Positions 24,601 to 53,378 of a DNA stretch of 64,000 bases are shown piece by piece. The position numbers and the translations under genes were made by a program. Positions within the stretch are counted from its first letter, which is position 1, and every line of letters starts with the position of its first letter. This DNA is from Cyanophora paradoxa CCMP329 (lineage: Eukaryota > Plantae > Glaucophyta), in assembly GCA_004431415.1 (NCBI GenBank), contig QPMI01000632.1, positions 1-64,000 of the forward strand. The letters are read 5' to 3'. The notes below the pieces were generated by a model. The model made no database searches and was not told where the DNA came from. It worked only from the letters and a program-made list of their open reading frames with translations.

Positions 24601-26476
24601 CGACACGGGGCAGGGTGGGACGGGCGGGCGGGCGGGCCTGGAGATCGTCGAGGAGGACGAGGGTGGGCAGGCCGGGCGCCGAGACGGCCCGCAGCAGGTC
24701 CACCACCAGCGACCGCAGCCGCGCCTGCAGCTCGGCGGGGCGCGCCTCGGGCAGCGGGGGCGGGGCGGGCCCGAGCAGGAGCTTGGCGGCGGGGGCGACG
24801 TCGACGAGGAGGCGGGCGCGGGGCCCGAGGGCGCCGGCGACGGCCTCGCGGCGGCGCGCGACCTCCGCGGGGGCCCCGCCAGCAGCCCGCAGAAGAGGTC
24901 CTCCAGCGCCCGGAACCAGACCGCCAGCGGCGCCCGGTTGTACTGGTCCGCCTTCCCGTACAGGTGCCGCGCCGCCGCCCCTCCGCCGCCGCCCGCCGGC
25001 ACAGCTCCCGCGCCGCCATCGTCTTCCCCGCGCCCCTGCCGCCGCGTCGGCCGCCCGGCGGGCGAGGCGCGAGGGGCGCTGCAGACGCACGCGGGCCCGC
25101 TGACGACGATGAGCGCCGGCCGGGCGCTCTCCTGCGCGGCCGTGTCAAGAGGCAGCGTGAGCGGGGGGCGCGGGGCCGGCACCTTGGCGGCGCGGCAGGC
25201 GTCGAGGGCGCGGGCGATGTCCTGCGGCGCAGCGTGAGCGCCGCGCGGCTTTGGGGCGGTTTGCAACAGAGGAGTGGACCTGGGTGGGGCCGCCGCAGGG
25301 CGCGTCGGGCATGCTGAGCCGCGCGCTCACGTCCCGCTCCCCCAGGCCGAACGTCTCCTGCCCCCGGCCCGCGCGGTGCAGGTCCCGGCACCTGCGCGCC
25401 GGGCCCGGGGCGTCAGGGGTACGCCGGGGCCGGGCGGGGGCCGGGGTCGCCTCCTGAGGTCGTGGAGGAGGCCCCAGGCCGACTGGTAGCGGTCCGCCGG
25501 CGTCTTCGCCAGCAGCCGCTGCGTCCCGCTCGGGGGGTACCGCGCGGCCGGGGAGGAGCAGGGGTACCTCGACGATCGCCTCGAAGGCCGGGGGTACGAC
25601 GGGGTTCAGCTGCGTCACCCGAGGCGGCCTGCGGGGCGGTGGGCGGGGCGGGGTAGAAGGGGTGCGGGGAGGCCCCGGGGCACCGCTTCGCGAGGTGCCC
25701 GTGGAGGTACTCGAGCGCAGTGGACCCCTCGAACGGCCGGCGGCCCGTCGCGCACTTGAAGAGCACCAGCTGGGGGGGAGGGGTCAGGGGTACGGGAAGG
25801 GAAGGGTCGCGCGGGGCCGGCCCCGCACCCCGAGGAGGTACAGGTCGGACCGCTCGTCGGCCCCTGCGGCGTCGGCGTCAAGGCCCCAGCGGCGGGGCGG
25901 GAGGGGCGGGCGGACCCTCAGAGACGCCCATCCTGCCGGAGAGCTCGGGAGCCGTGTACGCGTACCCCTCCATCGCCTCCGCCGGCTCCGCGCCCGCGGC
26001 CTCCCCCCGCGGCTCCGCATTGCCGAAGCGCACGAGGACTGCTGCGCATGCGTCGCGCGTCAAGGCCCTGCGGTGAGAACGGGGTGCACGGACGTCCCCA
26101 GCGCACCGGTCCTCGCGTCCTCGCCGCCACCAGCTCCAGAGCGATCAACGCGGAAGAAGATGTTGCGCGGCTGTCAGGGGGATCGGGGCTCAGCCACTTC
26201 AGCGAGTGAAGGAAGAGATCAAATCTTCGCACCCGGAGCGCGGACAGTAGCAAGCCGCGCGAGGAATCCGAGCTCGAAGGTTCATGCGCGGCATAGAGCG
26301 CGTCGGCGAGCGCGACGCTGAGGTCCAGCAGGCGTGTGGCGTCGAAAGGTCCAGCTTGCGCGATAGTTCTGCTAGGAGAATGGTACGGGTCGGGGGGTCG
26401 AATGGGGTGGTCGAGGTTGGTTCACAGCGCGATTTGACCTGTTAAGTTCTTCCCATCCTTCGGTCGGGTCCATCAT
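15653..26476 (-). CDS. Multi-sensor hybrid histidine kinase, copy A (pseudokinase C-lobe, AAA/STAND ATPase, helical region, GAF, PAS, HisKA, HATPase_c, REC); dozens of introns
   Basis: Spliced motifs [27 protein letters not shown]|GAGKT, LLDDLQ|[38 protein letters not shown]|H|[20 protein letters not shown]|IGI, GGTGLGL, GRGSRF, LVDD, ILL|DVEM|P and FLCKP. ATG at 26476, TGA at 15653. Confidence 0.9.
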
Positions 26477-29116: not shown

Positions 29117-29150
<34 letters not shown>

Positions 29151-33600: not shown

Positions 33601-36600
33601 CGCGGGGGCGCAGGCGGCGCACGACATGGTGGGGGCGCGCGAGCGGAGCGACCTCTGCTTCCGCGCGGGGACGCTCCTCCGCGGGGCCATGCGGGAGCCC
33701 GCCGAGGCCGCCAACCTCTACGAGGTCCGCCCGAGCCCGCCCGCCCCGGCCGCCGGCGCCGGCGCCGGCGCCGAGTGCGGCGCAGGTGGCGAACCTGCTG
33801 AACGCGTGCCTGGAGGAGCCGCCGGCGGGGGCCGACGCGGCCGCCCTCGCCGGGATCGCGGAGCTGGACCTGCTCGCCGCGCGCCGCGCGCGGCGCTGCG
33901 CGGGGTACGCCCGCGGCGCCGAGTACGCCGCCTGCGGCCTGCGCGCCCTCGCCCTCTCCGGCCGCGACGGCGAGCTGCGCCCCCTCCGCTTCTCCCTCGC
34001 GGCGCGCCCTCGCCCCGCCCCGCCGAAGCCCCCTAGCCCTGACGGCCCCCCCACCCGCAGCTCGCGCTGGCCGAGTGCAAGTACCTCTCGGGCGCCTACG
34101 CGGCCGCCGAGGCGGAGATCGCGGCGATGTGGCAGCTCGCCGAGACCCGCGCCGAGCGCCTGAGCGGTGCCGCCCCGCCGCGCGCCCCCCGTCCGCAGCC
34201 CTCCGCCCGTGACGCCGGCGGCAGCGTACCGCCTGCGCATCGCGTTCCTGAGCACGGCGGGGCGCTTCCGGGAGAGCGCGGAGGCCGGGCTGGACTGCCT
34301 GCGCTCCCTGTGGGGCATCTCCTTCTCCTTCGGTGGCCCCGCGGCCCTCGCGATCGCTGCGCGCCGGGAGGCTCGCGATCGCTGACGGCCGGGCAGACGC
34401 GACGTTCGACGACGTCGAGGCGGAGATACGCGCCATAGCGACCGCGCTGCACAATCTCCGTCCTCGCCAGACGGTTCCGCCGCGTTCGAGTTCGACGCCG
34501 ATGAGGCAGTCGACGCCTTCTGCGCCCTGCCGGAGTGCCGCGACCGCGGTGCGGCCGTTTGCGTTTGCGTTTACGTTACGCTGAGCTCTGTGCAGACATT
34601 CTGGACCTGATGCAGATCGGCGCCGACTCTGCGCTCTCCGCCCGCTACGGCAAGTTTGTCGTTCTCTACTGCCTCATCCCCGCCCGGTGCGAGCTGCCGC
34701 GCGCGGCCGGAGAGCCTTTACAAGGCCGCTGTAGTGATCTGTCCGCGCCAGGTGCCTGCTGCTGAGCCTTCGGCACGGGCGGGCCCCGGAGACGGCGTTG
34801 CTGGCGGGGATCCTGGCGCAGGCGTGCGTCGCCACCGACGCGACTCTTCGGCACGCGCGGACCTGCGCGAAGGCAGCCCGACCGCACCCGCGCTCCCCGC
34901 CGAATTCGCGCGCTGATGCCCCTGCAGGTCGCCCTGGCACTCGGCCCCGGCGCGAAAAAAGAGAGCCATGGCCAGTCCGAAGGGGACGCGAAGGTGCTTG
35001 GCCGGAACCGAATGACCGCATGGCGGCATGTGGCTGCGGCCGAATCGAATCGCGCAGACTCTCGTCTGGTGCTCCCTTGCATCGATCATGGCAGAGTCTT
35101 ACCGTACTTCTCTGGAGGTGAGCGCGCCACTTCCGTGCAGAACACTTCTGGAAATGGGCTTTCGTTGAGCTCGATCGCGTGCAGATTGGAGACAGCGCGT
35201 ACAGGCTCGCCATCTCTGTCGGCGACATCGTCTCGGCTTACATCGCCGGCATCTGCATCATCGGAGACGCGTTCTGGTGCTGCGAGCCGCTCGCCGCCGT
35301 CCACGATCGGGGTGCGCCAATTGCAAGTGCAGCTGCTTCTCGCGTGCAATCCCGACAACTGAGCTTCCGACCCCCCCAGCCGTCTCTGTGAACCGCTTTG
35401 TGGAGGGGAAGCAAGCCACGTACGGAATCGTCTCCGGCCTGTACGCCTTCGTCTCGGCGGTGCTGCAGGTGCCCGGCCCGGCGGCCCGGCTCGCCGCGAG
35501 ATACGCGCCGGCCGGGGTGAGGTCGATTCCGCCGCAGGGCGAGGACGGGGCCTCGGCGGGCGGCCCGAGGGCCCCGCCCCTGGAGCTTGTCTCGGCACCG
35601 GCGGAGGGGAATCCGTGCGGCCGGCTGGCGCTCGACGCGGGCCTTCTCCGCGAGATCCTGGCCGGCTTTCCCTGCTGGTGCGGGAAGTCGAGTTTGCGCG
35701 TGCGCGCGGGTGACGGTGTTTGCAGGGCCAAGGGGGAGTTCTCTGCCATCTCCATCGTGCTTTGCATCCTCCTCGGCGATTTCGGCACCGTGCGGCCTGT
35801 TTTAGCTGTTGTTGATTAGCAGCGCTTGCCGAGAAACACTCATCGTGGCGCCTACCCGATTTGACGTGCTGCATTTCACAATCTCTTGCGCTGCGCAGGC
35901 GTGGCAACTGGTCGATGAGGTCGATCTCGCCAACCCTGACGTGGTTCTCATGAGGGAGGGGTACTCGTGCTACCAGGACTACCTCTTCGCCACCGCCCTC
36001 GCCATCGGAGTGGTCCGCCCCGCGCCCCGCCCTCGGCCCGCGCGGAGCTCACGCTGCCGCCTCCGGCAGCGGCTCTCGCCGGGGCGGGCGGAGGCGGCCT
36101 TCGATGCGGCGCCGCTCTCAGCGGCGGAGCGCGCCGGCCTCGCGGAGCGCCTCCGCCGCTGCTGCGACGGCATGGCGCCCTTCGCCGACGCCTCCCCCTC
36201 GCCTACCGCCCCGGTCCCGCCGCCCGCCCCGCCCCGCCCCGCCCGGCCGCGAGGGCGAGCGGGGCGTGCATGCGCAGGCACCTTGTGATGCGGGCGGAGG
36301 CGGCGCGGGCGGCGGGGCGGCGGCGGAGGCGATGGCGCTGTACGAGGCGGCCTGCGACGCCGGCGAGGAGCAGCGCCTCCACCTCTTCTCGCGCGCCCCC
36401 GCCCGCCCCGCCCGCCCCCGCCCCCGCCGCCCCTGACCCCGCCCGCGCCCCGCGCCTGCAGCGCCGTCGCCGGCGAGCGGCTGGCGTCGCTCGCGGTGGA
36501 CCTCGGCCTGCGCCGCATGGCGTCGGGGCCGCTCCGGGCCGCCGCCGCCGCCCTGGAGGCCTGGGGCGCCGCCCCCGCGCCGCCGCCCTCCGCGCCCTCG

Positions 36601-39600
36601 TGTCCGAGGCGGGCGTCGCCGCCGCGGCCGCCTCGCCGCCGCCCGCGATTTCCGTCGGGGGTGCGAACCCTCTCAGCGGTAAGGAAGAAAGCGATCAGTG
36701 GCAGCCAGCCGCGGCGGTGCGCTGGGGCAGCTTCCGGTCGTGCAGCCCGCCGAGCAGCTCGGTCAGTCTCGATCGCGAGACATCGTCGACCGCGCGAGCG
36801 CCCGGCAGGACGGATTCGTCCGGAGTCTCTCCCCCGCCGGCGCTGGGGGCCGCAGCGCCGGCCGCACGGCGCAGCGACCGGCCGCAGCGCAGGGGCTCGT
36901 TCTCGCTTTCGATCTCGGAGGAGAACGCGCACAACTGCAAGGACTCTTCGTCCGAAGGCGACGCCCTCAACTGGTGCGCGCCACAGCGCAACCCGCCGCC
37001 CGCGTCGAGATCGAGATCTCGAGCGCGGTCCGGCAGGGAGACGTTGGCGTCGGCGAGCCAGTTCATCTCGCGGGAGATCGAGCTCGGGCGGCTGCTCGAG
37101 CGCCTCATGGTCGTCATCCTCGAGATCTCCGGCGGCGAGCGCGGCTTCCTGGTGCGCGGGCCTCGCAGGCGGAACGTCCAGATCCCCACCCCCGCCCCGC
37201 TCACTCCGGGCCCCGCGCAGGTCCTGGAGCACGACGTGGACGAGGACGGGGGCGCCGCGCCGCCCCAGGGCCCGCCCCAGTACTACGTGCGAGCCGCGCC
37301 CGACGCGCCGCGCGCGCCGCCCGGGCGACGCCAAAGCGCGCAGGTCGAGGCGAGCGGGGAGGTGGTGCAGAGCTCGGCGAGCGCGGAGCACCGCCACAGG
37401 CTGTCCGGCCGCCGTCCCTCGGCCGCGTTTGGAATCTCGTCGATCCACACGGAGGTCCTGCGGGGCGCGCCGCTGGCGGAGTGCGGCGAGCAGCTCTGCG
37501 CCCGCGCCGTCGAGTGGGCCCTCGCCACCGAGCAGGTCGCCATCGTCCAGGACTGCTCCAAGACGGTCCGCCCCGCCCGCGCCCCGCCGGCCGCCGGCGC
37601 GCTGAGGGCCCGCAGGAGGGCGAGGGGCCGCTGGCGGCGGCGGTGGCGGGGGACGGGTACGTGCAGCGCGCCGGCGTCCGCAGCCTCCTCGCGCTGCCGA
37701 TCTCCCACAAGGCCCGCGCCATCGGCGCGCCCTGCCCCGCCCGCCCCGCCCCGCCCCGTCTCGCGCCGGGCTGCAGCTGACGGCGGGGCAGGGGCGGTGT
37801 ACCTGGAGAACCGGCTGCTGCGGGGCGCCTTCCCGGCCGCCGCCGTCGACACGCTCCGCATCCTCTCCTCCCAGATGGCCGTCTCCGTGCGCCGGCCCCA
37901 CCCGCGCGCCGGCTCTCGAGCGCGCGGCCCCTTTCCGACGCTCTCGCGCGGGTCGCTCGCCTCAGATCGTCAACGCGCGGCTCTACGAGCGGCTCCGGAA
38001 GAGCTTCGCGGAGATCGCCGCCGTCCTCGGTGCGGGGCGCCGCGTCGCGCCCGGCCCGCCCAGCGCCGCGTCCGAGCGGGCGCGGGGCGCAGCGAGCGCG
38101 CACGACGCGATCGTGACGCTGGACGGGGCGGCGCGCGTCGTCGCCGCCAACCCCGCCAGCGAGCGCCTCTGGCGCGCCCCCCGCTCCGCCCTCGTCGGCA
38201 AGGTGCCGCCCCCGCCCTTCTCGTTTGGCCAGCGCGCGGAGCTCGGCTTGAGCGGGGCGCAGGCGCTGTCGGACCTGCTTGAGATCGAGGGGCCGCAGCT
38301 CACGAGGCTGGAGGAGCTGAAGGCGCCCCCGAAGCGCCCGTCCAGCCCGATCGAGTCCATGCGCAGCCCGAAGTGCAGGCGTCGCTCGCTCTCGGCGGAC
38401 GATCTCGGTCGGGTGCGCGCGTCGCGCGGCGCGCCGCCCCACCACCCCCGCCGCTAACGCTGACGCCGCATCTCGCGTCCGTCAGGTGTGGAACGGTGTG
38501 GCGGTGTGCCCCGGCGGCAAGATCGAGGTCGAGGTCTGCTTCACGTCGCTGGAGGAGGCGGCCGGGGCGGAAGAGAAGCCCGCGGAGGCAAAGCGCTACT
38601 CCGCATTCATCGTGCGCCCCGCCGCAGCCCGCCCGCCCGCCAGCCCGCGCGGGGCGCCCGGTCCGATCGTATGGGCGCCGCAGCGCGACGTGTCGGCGAG
38701 GGTGCGCGCGGAGAAGCAGCTGCAGGCCGTCCGCAGGCGCTGGTTCGCCATGGTCACGGTCCGCCGCGCCCGCCCGCGCCCCGCTTTCGTTTCGTCGATG
38801 TGTTCCTCCGGCCTGATCGGGTCTGCGCCCCGCAGCACGGTCCGGCTCCCTCGCGCGGGCCCCGCGCGATCGCGGCGGCCCCACTCACGGGGGTGGCGGG
38901 AAAAAATGGTAAAGTGGGGCTACTGTCACCACATCGATTAATTCCCAATATATCAAACAATCCCAATCAAAATCCTCTCGATTCTCAGTCTTTACCAATC
39001 AGAATTCAACAAATTCTCAGTCTCTCAATCACAATTAATCGAAGTTATATCTTAAATTAATTAATCGAAGTTATATCTTAAATCTTATTTATCGAAGTTA
39101 TATCATAATCTCGATTAATTATATTTAATCGAAGTTATATCTGATTGTTATATCCTCATTGATTGTTTCATATAGGAGCGAATATCATAATCTTATTAAT
39201 CGAAGCTATATCAAAATCTCGATAAATTATATTTAATCGAATTTTACCCGATCCAAAAAATGACGACTGTTTTTAAATTTACCATATCGATCTGTAAATG
39301 ACAACGATAATACCCGAAGATGTTAAACAAATTCTTCAAGATTTACCGCTTATTCCAGATGAGCAACAATTAAGCGAATTGATTGAGAAAACCGCTAATA
39401 GTGCTGGTTTAGATGTTAACAAACTACCAAGCAAATATAAAACAAATCTTATGAAAGGCTTCTTATCTACCATGGAAACTATGAACACACACCAATATTT
39501 ACAAATATTAGAAAAAAGACATGATGTAAACCATACACGCTGTAAATTACGTAGGAAATTGATTTTGAAAAATGCAATGGAGTTTCAAACATTCCTTGTT

Positions 39601-42600
39601 ATCTAAACCGTTATTGTTGTGGGTTCATTACTAATTCTTATTGATTCTCTCTTTTTTATCGCTCGTCTCTTAACAAACTTCTTAAAGCCCTTCATATCAT
39701 CATCTGTTAATATTGCCCGGTCTGTGTATACTTTTATATCATACCCTTGCAATCCAGTTATGACTGTTTGGTAGTTATAACCCCACAGTCTATGCAATTC
39801 CTTGTAGGTCTTTTTATCAAGACCCCCATTATACTCATCATAAGCGCAATTGAACTCTTTTTCGTTCCCAAGAATATTGAAAAATACTACGAACTCAACA
39901 TTTCGACGAATTGTAGTAGAAATAGAGCATAAACGTTGAGTATTTATAATTACTGTAATCGAATAATGACGGGCTGTAGTGATCAATTTAGATAACACAG
40001 CCGAATTATGCATATCCAAAGAAGAACCGATCATATCATCAAGTATAATAACAAGATTGTTGCGTTTTGCATTATTTTCGATTCGTTTCTTTTGCATGCT
40101 AATGAGTTTCACTACTACATTATCGTCCCATTCCTCATAGATATTATCAGGATGCGTTATATCTCTGAATTGACCAGTAAACGCAGTAGAACTAAAGACT
40201 ACAATCTGATCGATCTTATCCCTCAGTTCATAAAGTAGATATTTGCAGTAAGTTGTCTTACCAGAATTGCTGCGCCCACATAATAAAAAACGCGTGCTTA
40301 ATTTAACTGTTCTTGCAGGCTCAAACTCCGGGATGTCATTCAAATCAATATCCATTCCTGTGTTATCCATTACAGTAATAAGATAAAAAACAAAATAAAC
40401 CCCTTACCTACTAATTTTGAGCTTTCTACTATAACGAAAGAAAAAGAACTTTAGAAGTTCGAGACTTTCAGGGTAGAGATGTTGTAGCCATTGAGGACCA
40501 TAACATTGTGTCGTAGGGCATAGATATCAACCTGAACAGGAGCAGCATCAGTGCATCCCGAAACAGTGAGATCCATGTAACTGGAACTGCTGTTGAAGAA
40601 ATCCTGGTAACCCATAACACTGTTCCGAAGCGAATCTTTTCCAGATTTGGAAAGAACGATTCCGTAAATATTTCCATTCTCGAATCCATAAGTAGTATTG
40701 CCAACAGTAACACCCTTGTAATGAGAAGGAATGTGATTGATAGCCGAGAGGAAACCAGAAATGGGTTTGTTGGAGATATCCAGGGAGCGATTGTTGTGGA
40801 AGATCTGGAACTGATCGATCTTAACATCCGAAACATGACCACAGAAATCAGAGTGAGTGTAGGTGTTAAGTTTGTTCACCTCTCGAACTGTCATGAGAAT
40901 CGAATGAACCAGACCAGAAACATTAGCGAGTGTCACCTCAACCGATTCACCAGCATCAGCGGTTTTGAGCGCTCGTGTCTTCTTGTGGATGACCTCTGTG
41001 ATCGGAATGCGAATGCCACCTTGTTCATTTGCCATTTTCAAAAGTGTCTCAGCCTCAGCCGAAGCGATGTTTACAAATTGACAGATCAGGGAGCAATCCG
41101 CAAATGTAACAGATCCACCAGCAGGAACTTTGACTATCCCAGCATCACGGAAATCAACCTCGATTGTTGGCATATCCGCCAGTGTGCATAGTGGGAAGTA
41201 AGCATCATCCCAGAAAGCAGCGGGAATTTTCACAATGTATTCCATAGCCTCATCTGTGCTTTCACGATCAAGTTCTTTGAAGTAACCAAGAGAAGCATAC
41301 ATGCTGCTCATGGTAGCATGATCATTATCAATCAGAGCGTTAACAGTTATCCAGTCACCAGGGATGATATACTTGAAACCACCATGAACAAAGCGGACCT
41401 CATTAATATAGGAAGAACCACCATTGGGGAGGGTGCAGGCTACACCACCACCAGTGGCAATCTTGAAATAGAGCGAAACACCAGCAAGGAGTTGCTTGCG
41501 AGGTAGATCAAAGTAAGCGGTATTCTTAAAGCCAAAAGTATTGCCTCGGGGACGAACTTGCTCGAGGAATGGTTTGTACTTGGGGTTGGTTCCGATTTGG
41601 AGACCAGGGATAGATAAATTTGATCGGAACCGGGAGTTACGAGGAGTTCCTTAAGGGTAGTTCCAGTGAGTGCCATCTCTTATGTTTAAAATACCAAAAG
41701 AAATTTTTAAAATGCTTTATTAAACAGAATGACGCGTCATTACCTTAATATTGATTCCAGGGACCGAGATGATGGAACCCCAACGAACTTCACTTATAAA
41801 ATTCCCCATGCAATCCAAAATGTGAGAGCCTGCAGAGTGACTAACTTTGAGATGTTCAATAACATTTACAATCTTAGCGAGAATGGAAGTTTGATTACAG
41901 GAACCTATGATGCTGGAGATGTAATTAAAACTAAGAATAACACTATTTCAAAAGGGACATATACTTCGGATAGTTTGGTGAATCTTCTAAATGCCAAACT
42001 AGCTTCACAAGTGTATGGTGCAGCAGGAACTACCTATACTCGCCATTTCTACGTTACATATGATCCTGTTACCATGTTTCTAAGGTTCATGTGCGATGCA
42101 ACATTTACCCTCACCTTTGGAAGTCGGATCTTAGCAAACTTCCTTGGGTTTCCAGAGCGCAGACCTGACAGTTCAGAAAATGGTTACGCTTCTGCCCTGC
42201 TGGATTCACCTGTAACAGTCGGAGCTAATACTTATAATTACTACATTGACAGTGTTATACCGCTCGATCTTCTGTTCAACTCTTACATCCTTCTCCACGT
42301 TGACCCACTCAAAGGCAACTATGTAAGCAAGAACACAAGCGATGATAAAGCCCTCGCAAAAATCGAGATTGATCAAACGGTAGGCAGTCTCTTAAAATAT
42401 GATTCATCGAATAATTCCATGATCCTGCATGAGCAAAACGGTTTGGTGGAAGTTGAAACGCTAAAAGTTCGTCTCACATACTGGAATGGTGCCGAAACGG
42501 ATATTACCACTGATTGGTCGATGACGCTTGAACTCATTACGGAAGATGATAAAGATCTGACAAAGAAAGCATTGAAGAATGTCATTAAAGAGTTGGAGGG

Positions 42601-45600
42601 ACTCTACTTGCCGTTCTCACGGTCATAGGAAATACTGTAGAATAAATTTGTCTCGATATTACAAATGGCAACTCGAAAGACCCAGCCAAAGAATTTCTTA
42701 GCCAAACCAGTTGAGCAAGCGGAACCAGAACGGAAACAGTTTAAGAAATCAAAAGGAACCGCTGCATATGGAACTGGTGATCTCGATAAAAATGTTCACC
42801 AGACCATGAATGCTCACACAATTGCGCTTACTTCAAATTATAATGATGATAATGCCCTGGTTGACCAAGTCCCACTGAACCGCATGCCTGGAGCCAAACG
42901 AGGAATCAAGAAAGGACAGTTCAAATCATCGACAAAGGACAAGGTTGCCTCATCATCAACACTGCTGAAACTGCTTGATGGTGGTGAGCGACTCTACTCA
43001 ACCTATTCCGAGAAAGACCATCGCAACCGCTACTTTATTCGTTCAACCACTGGTGGACTGAAATCTGTGACATACCAGTATGCTAGGAGTCTTGTTGATG
43101 GCATTGCAGCAGAGACCAAAAACGAAAACAGGATCAAGGAACAGCCAATCACAAAGGAAAAGGTGGAGAAGAAACCAGAAGTAACCCATGAAGTCATCCC
43201 TGAACCTGTTCATGTCGTGAAAGAATCACCAGCCGAATTGATTGCAAAGACCATCGATTATCAAGAGTCCAACAAAACGGATTTGCCGGTCCTCAATAAA
43301 TCAATCCTCCGGGTTGCCACTTCACAGGCTGATCCAGTCAACTCGATTCCAAATGCTGCCCCAATGGTCTCAGGGTTTGCCAAGCTCGGTATTAAACCTG
43401 GTTATCGCCGTTAAGGATCATTTCCGAATTAAAAAAATCTTGAACATTGTTAGCGCTACGTAACCAATCTTATCCCGTAGGCTCAAAACTTCTTCATTTT
43501 TATGGAGGCGTTGTAGAGCGAAGTGAATTATCCACAGATATCACTTTAATCACCCGTTCTACCGGGTTCAGTGGTAGAAACTTGCATCCGACAAGTGAAC
43601 CTTTTTGGGTATCGGTGGCTTTATCATTTTTCCAGCATCTTCTTTCGTACTGGATGCTCTGCAATCGGGACCAAAATTTGACAGGAGTTTAATCGCTATA
43701 TACAGACAGAAAAACTACTTAAAGATTTCTTAACATATATTAAGAGAGTAGAAAAGGACAAAATGCCAATCAGTGAGGCTCAGAAGCGTGCTACTTACCG
43801 TTATCGCAAAACTGAAAAAGGTCAGGAATATTTAAAAAAGTATAATGCGAAATTCGCAAAGCAAATGCGTGATTTATACCATACTGATGAGTGTTACAGA
43901 GCCATGAGAATCGTTGAGAGTTCCCAGCGTCTCTATGCTTCCAATGCAGTCTGCTTTGTGAAGTATCTCTATGGCGTCCCCTATTCTAACCGTGGTCGCA
44001 AATCGAAATATCTCTGTTAATTGTTTTTCTCAGCGCGATCTGCTCTGAGAAACCCGTGGGAACCGCGCTGGAACCACAAATAAAATCATTCTGTTATTTT
44101 TAGAGTTCGATGATCGAGCCAACCCTTTGTTATTTTTATGAATGCCCTCGACTGAATTAATTTTGTTGGAGACTTTTGGTTTTGCCGGTAAAATTTGACG
44201 CGAGTATAAAAGTATTTAAAGAAAACTTTTGTAGGTATATATTAATAGAGTGAACAAAGAAATGCCTCGACCAAGTAATCGAATTTCGAAGAATTTGCAG
44301 GATGAGATTCTTGGTTACTACATGCAAGCAAAAGTAGAAGACAAATTGACCCGAGAGCAGGATATCTATTTCTTGAGAGAATTTACTTTCAAAGCAATTA
44401 GAATTCCAAAGTTGATTGATATCAGAGATACACTGAGAGGTATCGTAGAGCCTCGTTTGTATCGCAAGCAGGAGAAGAAGGAGAAGAGGGCTGAGAGAGC
44501 CGCTAAGAATGTTGCAAAACGGCAAGCAAAGACCAAAGAAGTGCAGAAATACAAAAGAAATCAGCAGAAGAAGGCCAAGAAGCAAGAGAGGGTTCAAAAA
44601 TGGAAGTCAAAGCAGGAAGCCAACCAGGTTCAGGTAATGAATGCCATGAATCACCTAGTCGAAGAGATTACATGGAAAAACCCTAAGAAAAACCTAATTA
44701 ACACAATCCATCGGTTTATCACTGAGAAGATAGGATGGGATGATCTCCACAGAAGACTTCAAGAGGCTTTGGACAGACACAATGGAATTAAGTTCCAGTT
44801 CAAAGTGAAGGCCAATTACAAATACAAGGAGAAGCAAAATGGAAGGTGGACAGGAGAGTACCAATACGCAACCAGATATCCAAGCTCAATGCAGTTTTAC
44901 CTAGTTCTTCCAGCAAATGACCTAACGGATATCGTAAGGCAAGCTGTGGATGATCTGCATGAAATCATGACAGCCATTGAGTATGCAGAGGTTCACAATA
45001 TTCTCGAAGTAACCCTACAAATTCTATCTTACACACCTCTGACAGGAAGTTCTTACATTCCTCTTCCAGAAGAGATTGAAAAGAGAAAGGCTGTTATCAA
45101 TCCTAAGAATGAAGACCAAGAATGTTTCCGACATGCTGTTAAGATTGGCTTGCATCACAATGATGTCATTCGAAACCACAGATCTGAATTGAAACGATAC
45201 AGTAAGTGGGACAAGGAATTTGATTGGAGTCGCTTTGAGTTCCCAGTCAAGAATGATTCTAGAGTTTACGATCTAGCTTCAAAGATGATTGGTAGACCTA
45301 TCAATGTCTACTTCCTTGATAACAAGAAACGAGTCTTCCCTATCCATGTGAACAAGAACCCAGCAGAGCAGCACAAGACCATTGACCTTTTGATGTGGAG
45401 TGATGGGGAGAACACCCATTATGGCTTCATTTCAAGTCTATCGAGACTCATTCCAAGCTCACACAAGGAAACGAAGTATTTCTGTAAATGCTGCTTGAAG
45501 GGATTTACAGGTCAAAGGATCCTCGATAATCACATTAGACTAAGCAGATGCTATGAACGACCAACAGCAACTATTGATGTGATGCCTGAAGCAGGAAGCT

Positions 45601-48600
45601 GTATTATGTGGGATCCACAGAGAAATGCAGACAAAACAGTTTGGCATCCGATGTTTGCAGTTGCTGATTTCGAGTGTCTCCTGAAATCTGTTGAAAGTGT
45701 TGTGACTCGTGTTGATGAGAAAGGTGTTAAATACGATTCAAATAATAACGAGATCAACACCGAAATTTACCAAAAGCACATCCCTTGCGCTTACAAAATC
45801 ATGATCATGCATAAGGACAAGATCCTAAGAGAAGTCCTCTACCAGAAACAAGATCCAAACAACGATGATGAGGTAATCAATCATTTCATGACAACTCTCA
45901 AAAATATGGAGGCTGAGTTGCTTGAAAAGGTGAGAGAGGTCGAGCCAATAAAGATGGATCGATATGACAAAATGAATTTCAAAGAAGCCACATGCTGCTA
46001 CATTTGCGAGGATCAATTCGTTAAATATGGAGAAGAGGGTAAGGTTTTCATTACAAAGAAAGTCAGGGATCATGATCATACCACAGGTAAATATCTTGGG
46101 GCTGCCTGTGATAAATGCAACCTGAGAAGAAGGGTTAACCCTAAAATTCCTGTTATATTCCACAATCTGAAAGGGTATGATGGACACTACATTCTAAAAG
46201 CTCTCGGTGAGCATGCAGACCCAGGAAAAGAGATCCGCTGTATCGCTGAGAATTTCGAGAAGTTCAAGTGTTTCGACTTTAACAGCTACAAATTCGTTGA
46301 TTCCCTGAATTTCATGCAAGAAAGTCTTGACAAACTTGCTAGTAATCTCGGTCACAGAGACAACTATAAATACACCAATGAATGGTGTGACCAGCATACA
46401 ATTACGGAGACCCAAAGAGAACTCCTGATGAGGAAGGGATTCTTCCCTTATGATTACTTGGATTGCCTTGATAGACTCAGCGAAACTAAACTTCCCAGCA
46501 AAGAGGCTTTCTTCTCAAAGCTTAATGATCGTGAAATTAGCGACAGTGACTACAAGCATTGTCAGAAGGTGTGGGATGCATTTGATTGCAAGACACTTGG
46601 AGATTACATGAAGATCTACCTTGAAACTGATGTGTTCCTTCTCGCTGATGTGTTTGGTCACAATTTCCGACAGAGATGCTATAAAGATTATGGACTTGAT
46701 CCTATCCATTTCATTTCAGCTCCACACCTCAGTTGGAATGCTATGTTGAAACTTACGAAGGTTGTTCTCGAAAACATTGATGATGATGAAATGTATCGTA
46801 TGTTCGAGCTTGGAATTCGTGGTGGAATATCGATGATAGCTACGCGGAATGCTCAGGCTAACAATCCATACATGAAGAACTTTGATCCAACAAAGCCAAT
46901 AAAATACATCATCACATGGGATGCCAACAATTTGTATGGATTTGCTATGTGTCAAAAGTTACCTATTGGTGATTTTGAATGGATCGATAACGTTGAAGAC
47001 TTTGATTACATGAAATTTGATGCTGATGGTGAAACTGGGGCATTATTGGAGGTTAATTTGGAGTATCCAGATCATTTGCATGATGAGCATAGCGATTCCC
47101 CACTAGCACCTGAATCTATGGTAGTAACTGAGGACATGTTATCACCTTCCCAACTTGAAATGCTTGGTGAAGAAAAGCTTCCTGGAAACCGAAAGTTGGT
47201 ACCCAATCTGAACAACAAACACAACTACGTTCTTCACATCAAGAATCTGCAATACTATGTATCAAAGGGTATGATTGTGAAGAAGATCCATCGAGGGATT
47301 GAATTCAAACAATCGGCTTGGTTGAAACCTTACATTGATTTCAATACTGAGAAAGGAAGCAGGCACAAAATGATTTCGATAAGGATTTCTACAAGCTCAT
47401 GAATAATTCGGTGTATGGAAAAACCATGGAGAATGTCCGGAATCGTAGCAACATCAAACTCTGCCACAACCCAGAGAAGCAGGCGAAACTGAATGCAAAC
47501 CCTCTACTGAAAAAGGTTAAGATCATCACCGAGAACCTGACAGCAGTTGAAATGTATCGTGGAACTATTCTTCTCGATAAACCAATCTATGTTGGTCAGG
47601 CGATCCTTGATTTATCAAAACTTGTCATGTATCAGTTCCACTACGATTACATTCGCAAGAAGTATGGATCGAAAGCCAAACTCCTCATGACTGACACAGA
47701 TTCGCTGTATTACATTATTGAGACCGAGGATCTATACAAGGATATGAACTCTGACTCTCATTTGTTCGATCAATCGGAATACAGTCCTTCTCACATTTGC
47801 TACAATCCTCAAAATAAAAAGGTTCCTGGTTTATTCAAGGATGATGCCGGTGATTTGGTTGTAACTGACTTTGCAGGATACAAACCAAAGGCCTACTCTT
47901 ATTTGAAGGATTTGAATGTCAAGGCTCTTGGTTCGGAAGAAGATGTGAAAAAGGTGATTGCTAAAAGGTTGAAGGATAGTGGGAAAAGTTCAGAAGAAGA
48001 TGTAAAGAAAGATACTGTAAAGAGGTTGAAGGGAATCCAGAGATGTGTAGTTAAAAACAAATTAGAGTATAAGCATTTCTATGATACTGTCATGGGCAAG
48101 AGCAGGATCCTGTTACAGTTAGAGGAATTCGTTCAAAGAACCACGAGGTATCAACACTTGAAATGAAAAAGAGGGCATTCAATGCGCTTGATACCAAGAG
48201 GTATCTTTGCGAGGATAAGGTGAATACTCTTGCAATTGGGCATTACAGAACTCGCTAAGGTTAGGTTAAAGAAATTGATTGCTTATTGTAATGGAGCAGG
48301 TATTGAGCTATACAAAATATAGACAAAAGCTAATCAATGAGGGTGTAAAGTTTGATGAGGATGAATTGAAAAAGAGATTTAAAAACAGTGAATTGAATCA
48401 GATTTTCAAGAAGCCTACCAAGCCGAAATCGTTTCTTAGAATCGTAGCCCCACCCAATTCTTTTCAGGTTGATATTATATATTTCAAGGATTATAAGACA
48501 GCAAACTATGGTGTGGATCGCATGCTAGTATTCGTAGATATTTTGAGTAGGAAGGGTTTTATATTTCCTTTCAAAATGGTCACTGGGAAGGAGAAGAACG

Positions 48601-51600
48601 ATGAGAAGAAGATTGAGATTCTAAACAAATTTAAAAGCCAAGCTGGAACAGTCCAAGCTCTTTCCGGAGATAAGGAGTTTTCAGGGAATATTTACAAGAA
48701 ATGGTGTGAGGATAATGGTGTGGTTTTATACACAGACATTGCCAAAGATGACCACATTACAGTTGGGGATAAACTCGGAATAGTTGATAGGTTCACAAGA
48801 ACAATCAAGCAGTATTTAAGGAAGGCTATAAAGTCAACTGGGAACTCGAAGTGGACTGAATTTTATGAAGATGTGCTGGCGACTTACAATAACAGTCCAC
48901 ACAGTTCACTGAAGAATGATTCTCCAAATGCTGTGTATGGAAATAAAGAAAAGGAAACGTATGTTTACTTTCGTGATTCACTGCATAATAAGCATGTGAG
49001 AGAGGGATTACCAAAAGTGCAAGAAGGAGATTATGTGAGGGCTGTGAATCCAAAGGGAGTTTTCGAGAAAGAGGGTGCAAGGTTCAATGAGAAAGTGTTT
49101 AAGGTGGCTGGTAAAGTTCAGAATAAATACAAACTTTTGGAGGATAATGAAGGTGAAACAGTTCGTGAAGTTCGAAGAAAATTCAAAATAAATGAGTTGC
49201 AAAAAGTAGATAAAGAGGCTGTCGTAAAGATACCAACCCAAAAGAGAGTTGAGAGGGTAAAGAAAACCACAAATGTGAATCGAGTGGTTTCCCAAAAAGA
49301 AGGAATAAAACCAAATCGTAAGAAAGTAGTTAGAAAGAGATATAATTTGAGAAGTGGATTAACTAAACGTTAAGCTCTAATATCAGATCCATCATCTGAT
49401 TCAATAAATCTTGTAACTGGTTTGAATCTTTGAAATACATCTTTGTGGTGAATTCCTTTTACATACCACCCTTTGTTTACAGGATCCCATCTGAGTCCCA
49501 TACACTTTGCATCGAAATTATCTTTAAATTGAACTTTGCAGTAGATCTTTTCATTTCTGTATTTAATTTCTTTTTCATTGATCGTTTGGAATTCTTTCAG
49601 TAAATCACTATTTGCATCTTCTGTATACCAAAGTTTCATTTCATAATCCCATTTTGCTCCTTTCTCTTTTGCGATTTTTCGATCATTGTAATCACAATCA
49701 AAGTAAAACTTCTTAATTGTATTTGTCTCCATTTTATTCAGATTATCATATTATTTTTATATGAAACAATCAATGAGGATATAACAATCAGATATAACTT
49801 CGATTAAATATAATTAATCGAGATTATGATATAACTTCGATAAATAAGATTTAAGATATAACTTCGATTAATTAATTTAAGATATAACTTCGATTAATTG
49901 TGATTGAGAGACTGAGAATTTGTTGAATTCTGATTGGTAAAGACTGAGAATCGAGAGGATTTTGATTGGGATTGTTTGATATATTGGGAATTAATCGATG
50001 TGGTGACAGTAGCCCCACTTTACCATTTTTGGCGGGGGCGCGCAGACCTGCGGACGCCGCTGAACGGGATCGCGGCCTCGCACGAGCTCATCCGCGACAC
50101 GCCCCTCTCCCCTGAGCAGCGCGAGTACGTGCAGCACATCGGGGCCGCGACCGAGCTGCTCGTCTCCCTCATGAACGACGTGCGCCGCTTCCCTCCCGGA
50201 CGAGGCGGCGGCCGGCACGCTTCCTTGCCTGACGCCGCGGGGCGGGGCGGGGGTCAGATCCTGGAGTACTCGCGGCTGGAGGAGGGCGGCGGGGCGGAGC
50301 CGCGGCCGGCCCCCTTCGACCTCGTCGAGCACATGGAGGGCCCGCCCCCGCCCCGCCCCCGCCCGTCCCCCGCCCCGCCGACGCCGCCGGCAGAGACGGC
50401 GGCGCTGCTTGCGGGCGGGGCGCGGAGCAAGGGCGTCGAGCTGCTGCTCCTCGTGCCGCCGGCCGTGCCGCGCCTCGTCGTCGGCGAGAGCGTCCGCCTC
50501 CGCCGCATCGTCATGAAATGCCCTTTACCCGAGCCCGCCCCGCCCTCCCGCCGGCCGGCTAACCCCGCCCGCCAGCTACGCGTCGAACGCGATCGAGTTC
50601 AGCGAGCGCGGCGGGCGGGTGGAGCTGCGGGTCGACCTCGCGGCCCGCGGGCCCGGCGCCTCCGCCACCCTCCGCTTCACCGTCACCGACACCGGGTGCG
50701 CGCCCCTCTGAAGCCCGCCGGTCTGCGGCGCCCTAACTCCGCCACCTGCAGCATCGGCATCGCGAAGGGTGACCCGCTCGATGCTCTCCGAGCGGCCCTC
50801 GCGGCCGCCGCTAAGACCGCCCCGCCCCGCAGAGCACCAGCACCTCCTCTTCCGCCCCTACGGCCAGGTCCGGGGCCCCGCGCCGGCCCTCCCGCCCCGC
50901 CGCGCCCGCCCGAGCGCCGCGGGTGCAGCTGGCGGCGGATGACGTCACGCGGATGTACGGGGGTACCGGCCTCGGCCTCGTGCGCCTCCCCCGCGGGCCC
51001 CGCCCGGCGCGCCTCACGCGGCGGCAGGCGATCGCGAAGCGGCTGGCGGAGAGCCTGGGCGGGGCGGTCGGCGTCGAGTCGGAGCCCGGGCGCGGCTCCC
51101 GCTTCTGGGCCACTGCCGTCCTGCAGCTGCAGGAGGTGCACGGGGAGCCTGCGCGCCTCTGCGGCGGCGGCCTCACGCGCCGCCGCGCGCAGTGCGAGCA
51201 GCCGGAGTGGCCGCGGCTGCGGGGCGCCGTGTGCACCGTCCTCGCGGCGAGCGCCGGCGTCGCCGACCTGCTCGATTTCTACGTCTCCCAGGTCCCGCCC
51301 CGCCGCCCCTCGCGTCCGCCCTCGCGATGCGACGCGCGCGGCAGTGGGGCGGGACGGCGCGGCGAGGAGCCAGCGCGGCGGGCCAGCCCAACGACGCCGG
51401 CGGCGCGGCGGTGGCGATCGGCGACGCGGCGGCGCTCGCCGCGGGGCCGCTCCCGCGGCGGCGCGCCCTCGCGCTCCTCTCCGCCAAGGTCCGCCCCCGC
51501 CCCGCCCCGCCCCGCCCGCGCCCCCGACGCCGCGCGCAGTCGGAGGAGGCCGCCGCGGCGCGCGTCGCCGCCGAGTGCATCGGGAGCCCCGTCCTCCCCT

Positions 51601-52584
51601 CGCAGCTCGCCCGCGCCCTCCTCCGCATGTCCGCCCCGCGCCCCCGCTCGCCCCTCCGCTCCGCCGCTGATGCTCCGCAGCCTGAACGACGCGGAGGAGG
51701 GCGACCCGCCGGGCTCGCCCGCGGGCGCGGGCGCGGGGCCGCCGGCCTCAGCGCCGGCCGCTCCGCCGCCCAGCACCGCGGCGGCGCCGAGCCCCGCGGA
51801 GGCCGCTGCAGCTGCTTCCGCCGGCACGGGCGGCGGGGCTCCTGCGGGGCGGGTGCGGGTGCTGCTGGTGGACGACGTGCGGACGAACCTGGTGCTCGCC
51901 AAGAAGATGCTCGAGCTCGGCGGCTGCGAGGTCGCCACCGCCGAGGACGGCCTCCAGTGCATCGGTCCGCCGCCCCCGGCCCCGCCCCGGCCCGCCGAGC
52001 CCGAGGCGGGCGGCGCAGAGGCGTACAGGGCCGACCCGGCGCGCGTCGACCTCATCCTCCTCGGTGCGCCCGCCGCGCCCCGGGGCCCGCCCCGCCGCTC
52101 GCCGTCCCTGAGCGCCGCCGCCCGCGCGCAGACGTGGAGATGGTCCGCCGCGTTTCTCTCAATCTCCGCCCCGTTCCGCGGGGTGACGCGGGGGCCGCAG
52201 CCGGTGTGCGACGGGCGGCGCGCCTGCTCGCAGATCCGCGCGCTGGAGGCCTCCGGGGCGGTCGCCGGGCGCGTCCCCATCGTGTACGGCCCCGCCCCGC
52301 CCGCCCGGCCGGCCGGGGCCGAGGGGGCCCGGGCCGGCAGGTACCTCTCGGCGAACGCGATGCCGGAGGACCAGGAGGAGGCGCTGCGCCTCGGCGGCGA
52401 CGCCTTCCTCTGCAAGCCCGTGCGCCCGCGCCCGGGCGGGGCCGGGCGGTGCGGCAGGGCCGGCTGACGGTGCGGGGGGCGGCGGGGCGGGCAGATCCGG
52501 CGGCAGGTCCTCATGGAGGCCGTCGCCCGCCACAGCCGCCGGGCCCCGCCCCCGCCGCCCGAGCCCGAGGCCCCTGCCCGGTGA
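30629..52584 (+). CDS. Multi-sensor hybrid histidine kinase, copy B (inverted paralogue of 15653-26476), interrupted by the Polinton-like element; possibly becoming a pseudogene
   Basis: Same exon series as copy A on the opposite strand. ATG at 30629 ([15 protein letters not shown]), TGA at 52582-52584. It has an 11.1-kb insertion in the intron after the His micro-exon, a splice donor reading AT at 50518, and NAIKF changed to NAIEF at 50595. Confidence 0.85.
38902..39174 (+). repeat. Left terminal inverted repeat (273 bp)
   Basis: AAAAATGGTAAAGTGGGGCTACTG...GATTGTTTCATATA is the reverse complement of 49758-50030, with no mismatch seen by eye. There is one extra A at 38901. Confidence 0.95.
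39298..39606 (+). CDS. PLV hypothetical protein (102 aa)
   Basis: ATG-initiated ORF in AT-rich DNA directly inside the TIR. Its end overlaps the end of the convergent ATPase gene by 4 nt. Confidence 0.55.
   Translation: MTTIIPEDVKQILQDLPLIPDEQQLSELIEKTANSAGLDVNKLPSKYKTNLMKGFLSTMETMNTHQYLQILEKRHDVNHTRCKLRRKLILKNAMEFQTFLVI
39603..40370 (-). CDS. A32-like (FtsK/HerA) genome-packaging ATPase
   Basis: Walker A GRSNSGKT, Walker B VIILDD, and [15 protein letters not shown] (conserved RH...Q motif). Confidence 0.92.
   Translation of the reverse strand: MDNTGMDIDLNDIPEFEPARTVKLSTRFLLCGRSNSGKTTYCKYLLYELRDKIDQIVVFSSTAFTGQFRDITHPDNIYEEWDDNVVVKLISMQKKRIENNAKRNNLVIILDDMIGSSLDMHNSAVLSKLITTARHYSITVIINTQRLCSISTTIRRNVEFVVFFNILGNEKEFNCAYDEYNGGLDKKTYKELHRLWGYNYQTVITGLQGYDIKVYTDRAILTDDDMKGFKKFVKRRAIKKRESIRISNEPTTITV
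40451..41676 (-). CDS. Double-jelly-roll major capsid protein (about 408 aa); one 1-nt frameshift near 41616
   Basis: The ORF at 41676 ([20 protein letters not shown]) joins the frame of 40451..41311, which is open upstream of its annotated Met: [24 protein letters not shown]...[19 protein letters not shown]...[25 protein letters not shown]. This is a DJR capsid pattern, and the gene lies between the ATPase and the penton. Confidence 0.8.
41729..42628 (+). CDS. Minor capsid (penton) protein
   Basis: N-terminal YLNIDSRDR...PTNFTYKI...IQNV...FNNIYN and C-terminal YILLHVD...LAKI...LKVRLT..NG...DWSMTLEL, typical of PLV/NCLDV pentons. Divergent from the MCP gene. Confidence 0.8.
   Translation: MTRHYLNIDSRDRDDGTPTNFTYKIPHAIQNVRACRVTNFEMFNNIYNLSENGSLITGTYDAGDVIKTKNNTISKGTYTSDSLVNLLNAKLASQVYGAAGTTYTRHFYVTYDPVTMFLRFMCDATFTLTFGSRILANFLGFPERRPDSSENGYASALLDSPVTVGANTYNYYIDSVIPLDLLFNSYILLHVDPLKGNYVSKNTSDDKALAKIEIDQTVGSLLKYDSSNNSMILHEQNGLVEVETLKVRLTYWNGAETDITTDWSMTLELITEDDKDLTKKALKNVIKELEGLYLPFSRS
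42665..43414 (+). CDS. PLV hypothetical Lys-rich protein (249 aa)
   Basis: Clean ATG-initiated ORF following the penton gene; no family recognised. Confidence 0.7.
   Translation: MATRKTQPKNFLAKPVEQAEPERKQFKKSKGTAAYGTGDLDKNVHQTMNAHTIALTSNYNDDNALVDQVPLNRMPGAKRGIKKGQFKSSTKDKVASSSTLLKLLDGGERLYSTYSEKDHRNRYFIRSTTGGLKSVTYQYARSLVDGIAAETKNENRIKEQPITKEKVEKKPEVTHEVIPEPVHVVKESPAELIAKTIDYQESNKTDLPVLNKSILRVATSQADPVNSIPNAAPMVSGFAKLGIKPGYRR
43763..44020 (+). CDS. Small basic helical protein (85 aa), putative DNA-binding
   Basis: [28 protein letters not shown]. Shares an upstream motif with the pPolB gene. Confidence 0.65.
   Translation: MPISEAQKRATYRYRKTEKGQEYLKKYNAKFAKQMRDLYHTDECYRAMRIVESSQRLYASNAVCFVKYLYGVPYSNRGRKSKYLC
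44262..48258 (+). CDS. Protein-primed family B DNA polymerase (pPolB); two 1-nt frameshifts (near 47352 and 48098)
   Basis: Exonuclease motifs [24 protein letters not shown] and YLETDV. Polymerase motifs [18 protein letters not shown] and MTDTDS. Repaired junctions read [23 protein letters not shown] and [17 protein letters not shown]...ALDTKRY...[10 protein letters not shown] (TAA at 48256-48258). Confidence 0.95.
48291..49373 (+). CDS. Retroviral-like (rve) integrase
   Basis: [44 protein letters not shown] and an SH3-like GDYVR tail; consistent with the 6-bp TSD. Confidence 0.92.
   Translation: MEQVLSYTKYRQKLINEGVKFDEDELKKRFKNSELNQIFKKPTKPKSFLRIVAPPNSFQVDIIYFKDYKTANYGVDRMLVFVDILSRKGFIFPFKMVTGKEKNDEKKIEILNKFKSQAGTVQALSGDKEFSGNIYKKWCEDNGVVLYTDIAKDDHITVGDKLGIVDRFTRTIKQYLRKAIKSTGNSKWTEFYEDVLATYNNSPHSSLKNDSPNAVYGNKEKETYVYFRDSLHNKHVREGLPKVQEGDYVRAVNPKGVFEKEGARFNEKVFKVAGKVQNKYKLLEDNEGETVREVRRKFKINELQKVDKEAVVKIPTQKRVERVKKTTNVNRVVSQKEGIKPNRKKVVRKRYNLRSGLTKR
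49370..49732 (-). CDS. Tandem DUF5710-like protein (120 aa)
   Basis: Two repeats: [22 protein letters not shown] and [22 protein letters not shown]. Confidence 0.8.
   Translation of the reverse strand: METNTIKKFYFDCDYNDRKIAKEKGAKWDYEMKLWYTEDANSDLLKEFQTINEKEIKYRNEKIYCKVQFKDNFDAKCMGLRWDPVNKGWYVKGIHHKDVFQRFKPVTRFIESDDGSDIRA
49758..50030 (-). repeat. Right terminal inverted repeat (273 bp)
   Basis: Reverse complement of 38902-39174; followed by the TSD GGCGGG. Confidence 0.95.
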
Positions 52585-53378
52585 TCGGCCGCTGCTCATC
52601 GGGTTTCCCTGTTTTTTACCGAAATCCACGTTCCGGCCGATCGGTCGCGTTTAGTTTGATGTCTGTCGACGTCGCTGTAGATATCCATTTATGCTTTCTA
52701 TATCGTGTACGAAATCTTTCTCGCATAGGAACGTTGACTGCCTTCTTTCGCGTCGCATGTTGCGACATTTCGATCGTACATGTACAGCTCTTTTCAATCA
52801 TGCGTCATGATGATCATGAGTGCATCTTGTCAATGCCCATTCGAATTCGGGCATATAACTTAGTAATATACGATTTATGAGTGGTACAGTATATATTCTG
52901 TGCATCACCAATCGCAAGTCGTAGAAGCAGAAGCACACGCATCAGACCGGCTAGCCTGCAGCTGGCAGCCTGTAACATAGCCTGGTAGAGAAGATCATGG
53001 TCAAGACAAGAGTTAGGAAGAAGTAAGAAAGCTAAGAAGTAGGAAAGCTATCTATAGGGAACTACATTAAAAGTGGTAGGGTAGCTAGCGAAGCAGGCAG
53101 AGAAACCATATCAAATAAATAAGACTACCGGGTGCTGGTGCCGAACGTTGATCATGACGCCGACGGACTATTGCGGTGGAGGCGCGGCGGGACCAGATAC
53201 CGATGGCCATGGGGCCCGTTGTGCGGCGCCGGAGGGCCGGGGGAAAGGCCGGCCACTGCCGCCATGCATATGCCCCGAGGGGCCCGGCCCAGCCCCGGGC
53301 CCGGGGGGCCCTCCCGGACCCACGCTCGTAACCAAGCCCCAGGGCGAGCTCGAGGGCGCCCGCAGCCGGGCGGGGCGG

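Follow-up and report, generated by a model that had tools for sequence, protein, structure and literature searches.

Polinton-like viruses integrated in protist genomes span 14-40 kb and 15-30 kb in the survey passages at hand (PMC12220804, PMC10120064), and a supplement (PMC12220804) lists at least one of them in Cyanophora paradoxa. In excerpts from two other systems, endogenous mavirus-like elements (EMALEs) of Cafeteria burkhardae occupy 15 sites in predicted genes, 13 exonic and two intronic (PMC8547959), and antisense insertions of tirant in Drosophila host genes trigger silencing by PIWI-interacting RNAs (piRNAs; bioRxiv 10.1101/2025.07.28.667215). The present study concerns one locus, a stretch of 64,000 nt from C. 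paradoxa CCMP329 (contig QPMI01000632.1, positions 1 to 64,000; hereafter the window), in which a Polinton-like virus occupies an intron of a hybrid histidine kinase gene (copy B), while an inverted paralogue (copy A) has the same intron without the virus. Transposon insertions in introns are familiar from gene-trap alleles, where they cause intron retention and early 3′ ends. The reading preferred here, with a probability of about three in four, is that copy B transcripts retain the 70-nt intron that holds the virus and run about 1.8 kb into the viral sequence, making this a gene-trap-like insertion that acts via intron retention.

The transcript evidence consists of contigs from four putative RNA runs of four studies (X15, X16, X17 and X19), out of 24 runs listed; contigs from two of the 14 DNA runs were compared alongside two of these four. 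In particular, a single 1,965-nt contig (X16 record 10) joins 38687-38757 to 38835-40728 with no other letters and no gaps, and carries the copy B letters at 38695, 38710 and 38728. The same 38757/38835 joint is found in X15 record 1, so that splicing of the upstream intron together with retention of the interrupted one is seen in two of the four runs, while X17 covers 38840-40732 in two pieces (record 15 being 38840-39717). Overall, the left host-virus junction is crossed with 0 mismatches by contigs from three of the four runs, representing three studies, and none of the joints listed uses the AAG at 38912-38914 or any CAG in the terminal repeat. The depth of the B-only upstream exon in X15 (6.66 at 38527) is similar to that at the start of the read-through (7.45). 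A single correctly spliced micro-exon joint is listed, in X15 (depth 14.4), and it goes with the copy A letters at 50410, 50427, 50609 and 51063. Such a joint is expected under the sequence-only reading, whose suggestion that the insertion may be tolerated because copy A is intact would agree with it.

The reading frame of the retained intron ends 73 codons after the likely phospho-acceptor His, so that the product would still contain the His but nothing of the kinase core beyond it. The sequence-only reading had proposed a probable truncation of copy B at its catalytic His; a truncation agrees with the B-type contigs that retain the intron and enter the virus. The contigs stop at 40728 (X16), 40732 (X17), 40736 (X19) and 40635 (X15), where the DNA contigs continue further, and a weak candidate poly(A) signal, TGTAA, lies 7-15 nt before the stops in three runs. 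If the read-through is plus-strand throughout, it spans one 102-aa open reading frame (ORF) in sense and covers, in antisense, all of the ATPase gene and 280 nt at the end of the capsid gene, and it likely yields RNA antisense to these two viral genes; the contigs are strandless and may fuse overlapping RNAs, and the antisense assignment follows from the plus-strand host splice joint.

The coordinates of the insertion are consistent across several measures. The GC content falls from 0.76-0.80 in the flanking gene to 0.39 in the element, the terminal inverted repeats are identical (273/273), and both ends are flanked by GGCGGG, a 6-bp target-site duplication recovered by self-BLAST. Given the local composition, the chance of a given 6-mer repeat is about 0.002, and the two occurrences of GGCGGG among 395 local hexamers are the two target copies. 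With the element and one target copy removed, the copy B intron is 70 nt long, equal to the copy A intron, which has a single AGCGGG at the corresponding site. Together with the left-junction contigs, these data confirm the two placements made by the sequence-only reading, namely that the insertion separates the likely branch point from the acceptor of the intron after the His micro-exon, and that the paralogue retains the empty site; its transcription of the letters after CTCAC needs correction, from four G to the five that copy B has. The right junction is crossed by none of the RNA or DNA contig pieces listed. Among the DNA contigs listed, the only empty-site joint carries copy A letters, and no B-type empty site occurs among those of the two DNA runs; such a site would pair with copy A in an assembly bubble and might be lost there, and therefore its absence does not show the insertion to be fixed. 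Precise loss of a virus from copy A was rejected as an explanation, because its site differs from the copy B target and because elements with an rve integrase have no known excision route.

The genome of C. paradoxa is high in GC and has short introns, with a mean of 86 bp in an excerpt of its description (PMC6704402). In the copy B exon model, all 27 acceptors are CAG and the 26 introns other than the interrupted one are 48-79 nt long, two of the 27 having GC donors. In 16 of these 26 introns a branch-like motif is found 10-28 nt ahead of the acceptor, and CTCAC itself is present in three, which makes CTCAC the likely branch point of the interrupted intron, as judged from motif and position. 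Measured from CTCAC after the insertion, the first AG is the AAG at 38912-38914, the next CAG is 101 nt away, and the true acceptor is 11.1 kb away. Because of these last two distances, the intron likely cannot be defined by the host.

Comparison of the two kinase copies supports an insertion younger than their duplication, as the sequence-only reading had proposed, because the introns of A and B differ at 42/643, 25/417 and 21/517 sites in three segments (4-6.5%), the terminal repeats differ at 0/273, and contigs of the virus family from the DNA runs depart from the window copy at 3/2786 and 1/1819 letters. Further, DNA depth over the polymerase-integrase half of the element is 247-342, compared to 48-71 in the single-copy flanks (about five to seven times), and is far higher over the capsid half. 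This is a rough sign, short of proof of mobility or particles, that suggests several near-identical copies of the family in the genome. DNA contigs of the family have 29 extra bases between polymerase and integrase (48290) relative to the window copy, and loose ends at 39059, 39087, 40358 and 40442 mark related elements with different terminal-repeat or ATPase-flank sequence, that is, more than one subfamily; in X16, another loose end (40162) resembles a variant copy. Moreover, 31-nt contigs at 39852-39882 and 40170-40200 match the ATPase gene with 1-2 mismatches and reach depths of 2600 and 1800 in X17, with bins of 500-600 in X16; they may reflect strong RNA from a related copy of the virus, a set of short RNAs or an artefact.

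Several observations weigh against the retention of the intron and read-through into the virus as the outcome for copy B. Assembled contigs are the sole form of the RNA and DNA evidence; they drop the rarer allele of a bubble, carry neither strand nor ends, and report levels poorly, and the RNA status of the four runs is a tool's guess, none being recorded as RNA. Such dropping is apparent at 37672, upstream of the virus, where the B letter is also missing in X15 and X19. The pieces of X19 lie inside the virus only, with none listed over the left junction. TGTAA occurs five more times upstream within the virus on the same strand, and the literature examined does not give the poly(A) signal of this host. 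Finally, spliced B-type 3′ exons, which the sequence-only reading had not anticipated, are present in two of the four runs, in X15 record 23 (51698-51963 and 52495-53085, 0 other letters, depth 13.3) and in X19 record 30 (51681-51963, depth 11.4), and contigs cannot show their upstream partners. These exons would be accounted for by a leaky allele, where part of the copy B pre-mRNA splices out an 11.2-kb intron by using the TTTAC of the right repeat and yields full-length B mRNA; the A of that motif is 23 nt from the acceptor end, compared to 22 nt in the empty B site, and the B frame is open from 37038 to its stop. However, TTTAC is found at that position in 0 of the 26 other introns, all shorter than 80 nt, and the AT donor of copy B at 50518 would hinder a further splice. 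X19 lists no B letter at 38570-38728, although its B-type 3′ contig has the depth given above, so the 5′ half of B seems too weak to feed that contig, and leaky splicing is considered quite unlikely. The missing B-type 5′ half in X19 would suit a promoter located within the right terminal repeat or immediately after it, from which the B-type 3′ transcripts would start and encode an N-terminally cut product with ATPase and receiver domains but without the His, and scattered contigs do cover the virus at 49055-49780. Such a promoter predicts B letters nearest the virus, but the letters there (50410-50609) are A-type in both runs; the contigs at the right end of the virus differ from the window copy (3/263 and 10/733 letters) and resemble other copies, and with the right junction absent from the contigs listed, an origin within the repeat is unlikely.

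Among the readings of these 3′ exons, a recombined gene with an A-type 5′ half and a B-type 3′ half fits the depths best. Such a gene would be an addition to intron retention in copy B rather than a replacement for it: the inverted copies would have recombined (through an inversion of about 34 kb whose crossover lies within 50609-51235), or the assembly would have switched between them, giving some cultures a virus-free 5′ half with the 3′ exons and untranslated region (UTR) of B. The letters in X15 switch once, from A-type at 50410-51063 to B-type from 51235, while in X19 the letters are A-type as far as 50609 and B-type starting at 51063 or 51681, with a smooth rise in depth (6.1-6.4, 9.7, 11.4). 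X15 record 23 also enters B's own UTR and is unbroken at 52527, the fork between A and B at which the contigs are interrupted in both DNA runs. In contrast, X17 has the 3′ UTR of A at a depth of 104, and therefore the swap is not fixed (another X17 piece, at 52820-53085, may belong to the convergent gene); bubble popping also yields mosaics in DNA contigs, and the convergent gene, whose stop is near 53380, may raise the depth of the B UTR and tip the fork. The addition has somewhat less than an even chance. A further reading is that misassembly created the insertion, or that the read-through contigs derive from genomic DNA present in the libraries. The 1-bp deletion errors of the window, the guessed nature of the runs and the uncrossed right junction would allow for this, but the target duplication is exact, the left junction is clean in runs from three studies, and two of these runs lack the 77-nt upstream intron (GT-AG) that DNA would contain. 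The region 41700-44300 of the virus is moreover uncovered in all four runs; uncovered stretches of virus do not count as evidence of silence. The spliced upstream intron and the clean left junction in the RNA contigs largely refute an artefact or DNA origin, which is accordingly given a very small probability.

Under the preferred reading, intron retention in copy B would arise in several steps. The viral rve integrase probably inserted the element recently, after the gene duplication; the target duplication and identical repeats are observed, and the action of the enzyme is presumed from them. As the host splices short introns ending in CAG, the lengthened intron would probably no longer be recognized; the distances are measured, and the cause is proposed from them. 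The contigs then contain the retained intron and the read-through into the virus, and the transcript probably ends near 40730, for which the contig stops are a weak hint. The product would keep the sensor half of the kinase and lose the HisKA, ATPase and receiver domains. Finally, the virus-free copy likely supplies intact kinase and, in the X15 and X19 cultures, may bear the 3′ end of B through recombination between the inverted copies.

The element is a Polinton-like virus with a reduced module, a small and divergent member of a known virus group. A Pfam scan of 10 of its ORFs, with searches of individual proteins, defined its gene content. The exonuclease and polymerase motifs of the protein-primed DNA polymerase B (pPolB) were located in the sequence, and the polymerase had no match among solved-structure sequences. 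The integrase has 31 homologues, and the rve family (PF00665) is matched by 12 of the 19 aligned members, though not by the window's own protein to E 0.01; its acidic triad is D-D-D, with Asp as the third acidic residue as in most close relatives, and no relatives were found in viral contigs (0/33 candidates). The 399-aa capsid frame has six distant relatives, the nearest 22-25% identical over the alignment, and a 286-aa fragment of it had no homologue in a word-indexed search (0/547 candidates). Its structural model (predicted local distance difference test, pLDDT, 67; predicted template modelling score, pTM, 0.75) matches iridovirus and PBCV-1 capsids by Foldseek (E 1e-17), with Capsid_N look-alikes at 0.98, and those of Sputnik and mavirus come at ranks 48 and 50 (E 1e-12), after capsids of the giant-virus type. 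The neighbouring 299-aa ORF has viral look-alikes only, with DUF5901 in 17% of one cluster and a single-sequence fold of pLDDT 31, and is possibly a minor capsid protein. No protease family, including the cysteine maturation protease, was found among the 10 ORFs scanned. The element thus has the protein-primed PolB and rve integrase of strict Mavericks/Polintons without their cysteine protease, and has neither the capsid nor the protease of mavirus- or Sputnik-type virophages. The terminal-repeat pattern gave 0 matches in metagenome contigs, and no Rfam families were found in the element.

Three frameshifts interrupt viral genes in the window. At each of them, DNA contigs of two runs hold one extra base; in copy A, too, single bases present in A-type contigs are missing from the window. 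The frameshifts are therefore likely sequencing errors, and decay of the viral genes was not adopted as their cause, the majority contigs having one base more at each. The left end of the element (38901) has six A where the right end has five T, either a homopolymer error or an untemplated base, and the RNA contigs over the left junction are gap-free. A pair of motifs, one of 20 nt (85% alike) and one of 24 nt (79% alike), occurs twice with its order preserved, at 43673-43758 and 44190-44260, before the 85-aa ORF and the polymerase, and is likely a viral promoter.

Copy B encodes N-terminal kinase, ATPase, GAF and PAS-like parts (read by eye), followed by a HisKA domain and putative HATPase_c and receiver domains. 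Its exon model from 37037 to 52585 was set by eye, with several joints seen in RNA contigs, and contains 28 exons and 909 codons without a stop or frameshift; upstream of 37037, the alignment to copy A shows 1-bp gaps in G/C runs. HisKA (PF00512, E 2.3e-9) is matched on the exon after the micro-exon in both copies from profile position 13, and the exon model uses the 4-nt exon to place the His just before this match. HATPase_c (PF02518, E 3e-4 and 0.027) and the receiver (PF00072, E 0.011) were matched on single short exons below curated cut-offs, with their motifs visible in the exon model. Downstream of the virus, copy B apparently has AT where copy A has a GT donor, and a Lys-to-Glu change at 50595 in an N-box-like motif, which together are a possible early sign of its decay. 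Divergence between the copies is patchy, mostly 1-4% but 13-37% in several blocks (34400-37000, 38260-38620), as expected from gene conversion between inverted copies or from fast change in sensor linkers. Two further tiny exons of copy B, at 50752-50768 (17 nt) and 52132-52142 (11 nt), both have RNA joints. An AN1 zinc finger and UBX gene lies between the kinase copies (28745-29935, minus strand); its unspliced sequence matches one EukProt protein, named in the style of C. paradoxa gene models, at 100% identity over 39% of the query. A convergent gene at about 53150-54600 (minus strand), ending near 53380, appears to share a 3′ region with copy B, X15 record 23 spanning both. An ARAGORN tRNA-Gly call (51684-51779) lies in a GC-rich coding exon and was set aside as probably false.

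Table 1. Positions of the kinase copies, the integrated virus and its genes, and the features of the interrupted intron (window coordinates).
Feature	Position	Strand	Basis
Copy A, inverted paralogue without virus	15652..26336	-	89-96% identity in four BLAST blocks
Empty target site in copy A, single AGCGGG in 70-nt intron	18206..18211	-	sequence comparison
Copy B, hybrid histidine kinase gene, virus-interrupted	30772..52585	+	self-BLAST, exon model, Pfam on single exons
Host-virus read-through transcript, upstream intron spliced, next intron kept	38687..40728	+ (from GT-AG joint)	X16 record 10
Micro-exon, 4 nt, codes likely phospho-acceptor His	38836..38839	+	exon model, HisKA profile, RNA joint 38757-38835 in X15 and X16
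5′ portion of interrupted intron, GT donor, retained in contigs	38840..38900	+	X15 record 1, X16 record 10, X17 record 15
Likely branch point CTCAC	38884..38888	+	branch function inferred
Left target-site duplication	38895..38900	+	self-BLAST
Polinton-like virus, 11,130 bp	38901..50030		repeats, target duplication, gene content
Left terminal inverted repeat, 273 bp, with 26-37-nt internal repeats	38902..39174	+	repeat analysis
Premature stop of retained-intron frame, inside terminal repeat	39058..39060	+	frame reading
Viral ORF, 102 aa, no Pfam family	39298..39606	+	same strand as read-through
A32-type packaging ATPase	39603..40370	-	PF04665 E 1.9e-14; fully beneath read-through, opposite strand
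Double jelly-roll major capsid protein	40451..41676	-	relatives, fold, Foldseek; frameshift in window near 41610; last ~280 nt beneath read-through
TGTAA, weak candidate poly(A) signal	40717..40721	+	7-15 nt before contig stops in three runs
Viral ORF, 299 aa, candidate minor capsid protein	41729..42628	+	viral look-alikes
Viral ORF, 249 aa, no cysteine, no Pfam family	42665..43414	+	ORF scan
Viral ORF, 85 aa, basic, no Pfam family	43763..44020	+	ORF scan
Protein-primed DNA polymerase B with internal endonuclease-VII-like stretch	44262..48258	+	PF03175 E 2.3e-10, PF02945 E 6.8e-5; window frameshifts near 47350 and 48090
rve-type integrase, open frame, 360 aa	48291..49373	+	homologue alignment
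ORF, 120 aa, two DUF5710 stretches	49370..49732	-	PF18974 E 3.4e-15
Right terminal inverted repeat	49758..50030	-	repeat analysis
TTTAC in right terminal repeat, candidate substitute branch point, A 23 nt before acceptor end	50019..50023	+	motif position
Right target-site duplication	50031..50036	+	self-BLAST
Original CAG acceptor	50043..50045	+	sequence, exon model
Apparent AT replacing GT donor of copy A, three introns downstream of virus	50518..50519	+	A/B comparison

Protist genomes hold thousands of such viruses, and what they cost the host is mostly deduced from where they are inserted; at this locus the outcome is seen directly at the transcript level, with the virus-free paralogue as a built-in control. 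Two questions become open to testing, namely whether a genome of 60-nt introns can splice out an 11-kb insert, and whether read-through into an integrated DNA virus feeds RNA silencing as it does with the fly retrovirus. According to an excerpt on the small RNAs of C. paradoxa, this alga has Dicer, Argonaute and four RNA-dependent RNA polymerase homologues, as well as exonic small RNAs (PMC3700990). It is conceivable, though doubtful, that the locus works as a natural trap, in which the kinase promoter would drive a 1.8-kb RNA antisense to the ATPase and capsid genes, RNA interference would convert it into small RNAs, and the virus family, taken to be spreading recently, would be silenced in trans. 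If so, the spare kinase copy would make the trap affordable, and in a protist gene duplicates would offer places where antiviral memory is acquired by insertion. If neither splice-out nor silencing holds, copy B is simply a redundant gene disrupted by an insertion in the ordinary way.

Compared to known systems, the element resembles the Polinton-like viruses of protists, as far as the available passages describe them (PMC10120064, PMC12220804), in its terminal inverted repeats, 6-bp target duplication, rve integrase, pPolB, packaging ATPase, double jelly-roll capsid and drop in GC. It differs from them in its size of 11.1 kb, below both of their ranges, and in the distance of its nearest capsid relatives, while a reduced module with no protease, as found here, is called typical of Aquintoviricetes in one of these passages (PMC12220804). 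The same passages do not describe effects on host transcripts, and the literature searched, which included few subscription papers, yielded no account of a spliced transcript running from host into virus for Polinton-like viruses of protists. As with the EMALEs in the excerpt above (PMC8547959), a DNA virus that integrates by an rve enzyme lies within a host gene; EMALEs, however, have a protease and a virophage capsid, and their disruption of genes was predicted from position, whereas here a spliced host-virus transcript is seen and an intact paralogue serves as the control. The tirant insertions, in the portion of that work at hand, share with this locus a transcript that starts at a host promoter and enters a mobile element antisense to its genes, but they involve a retrovirus, a 3′ UTR insertion, the piRNA pathway and silencing demonstrated by experiment, in contrast to a DNA virus, intron retention and an alga here (bioRxiv 10.1101/2025.07.28.667215). 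Copy B shares the splicing failure, read-through and premature stop of gene-trap alleles, and differs from them in that the insert is an 11-kb virus coding for a capsid, in a genome of roughly 60-nt introns. Overall, viruses inside host genes are already known, and what appears to be new at this locus is the outcome at the transcript level together with its paralogue control.

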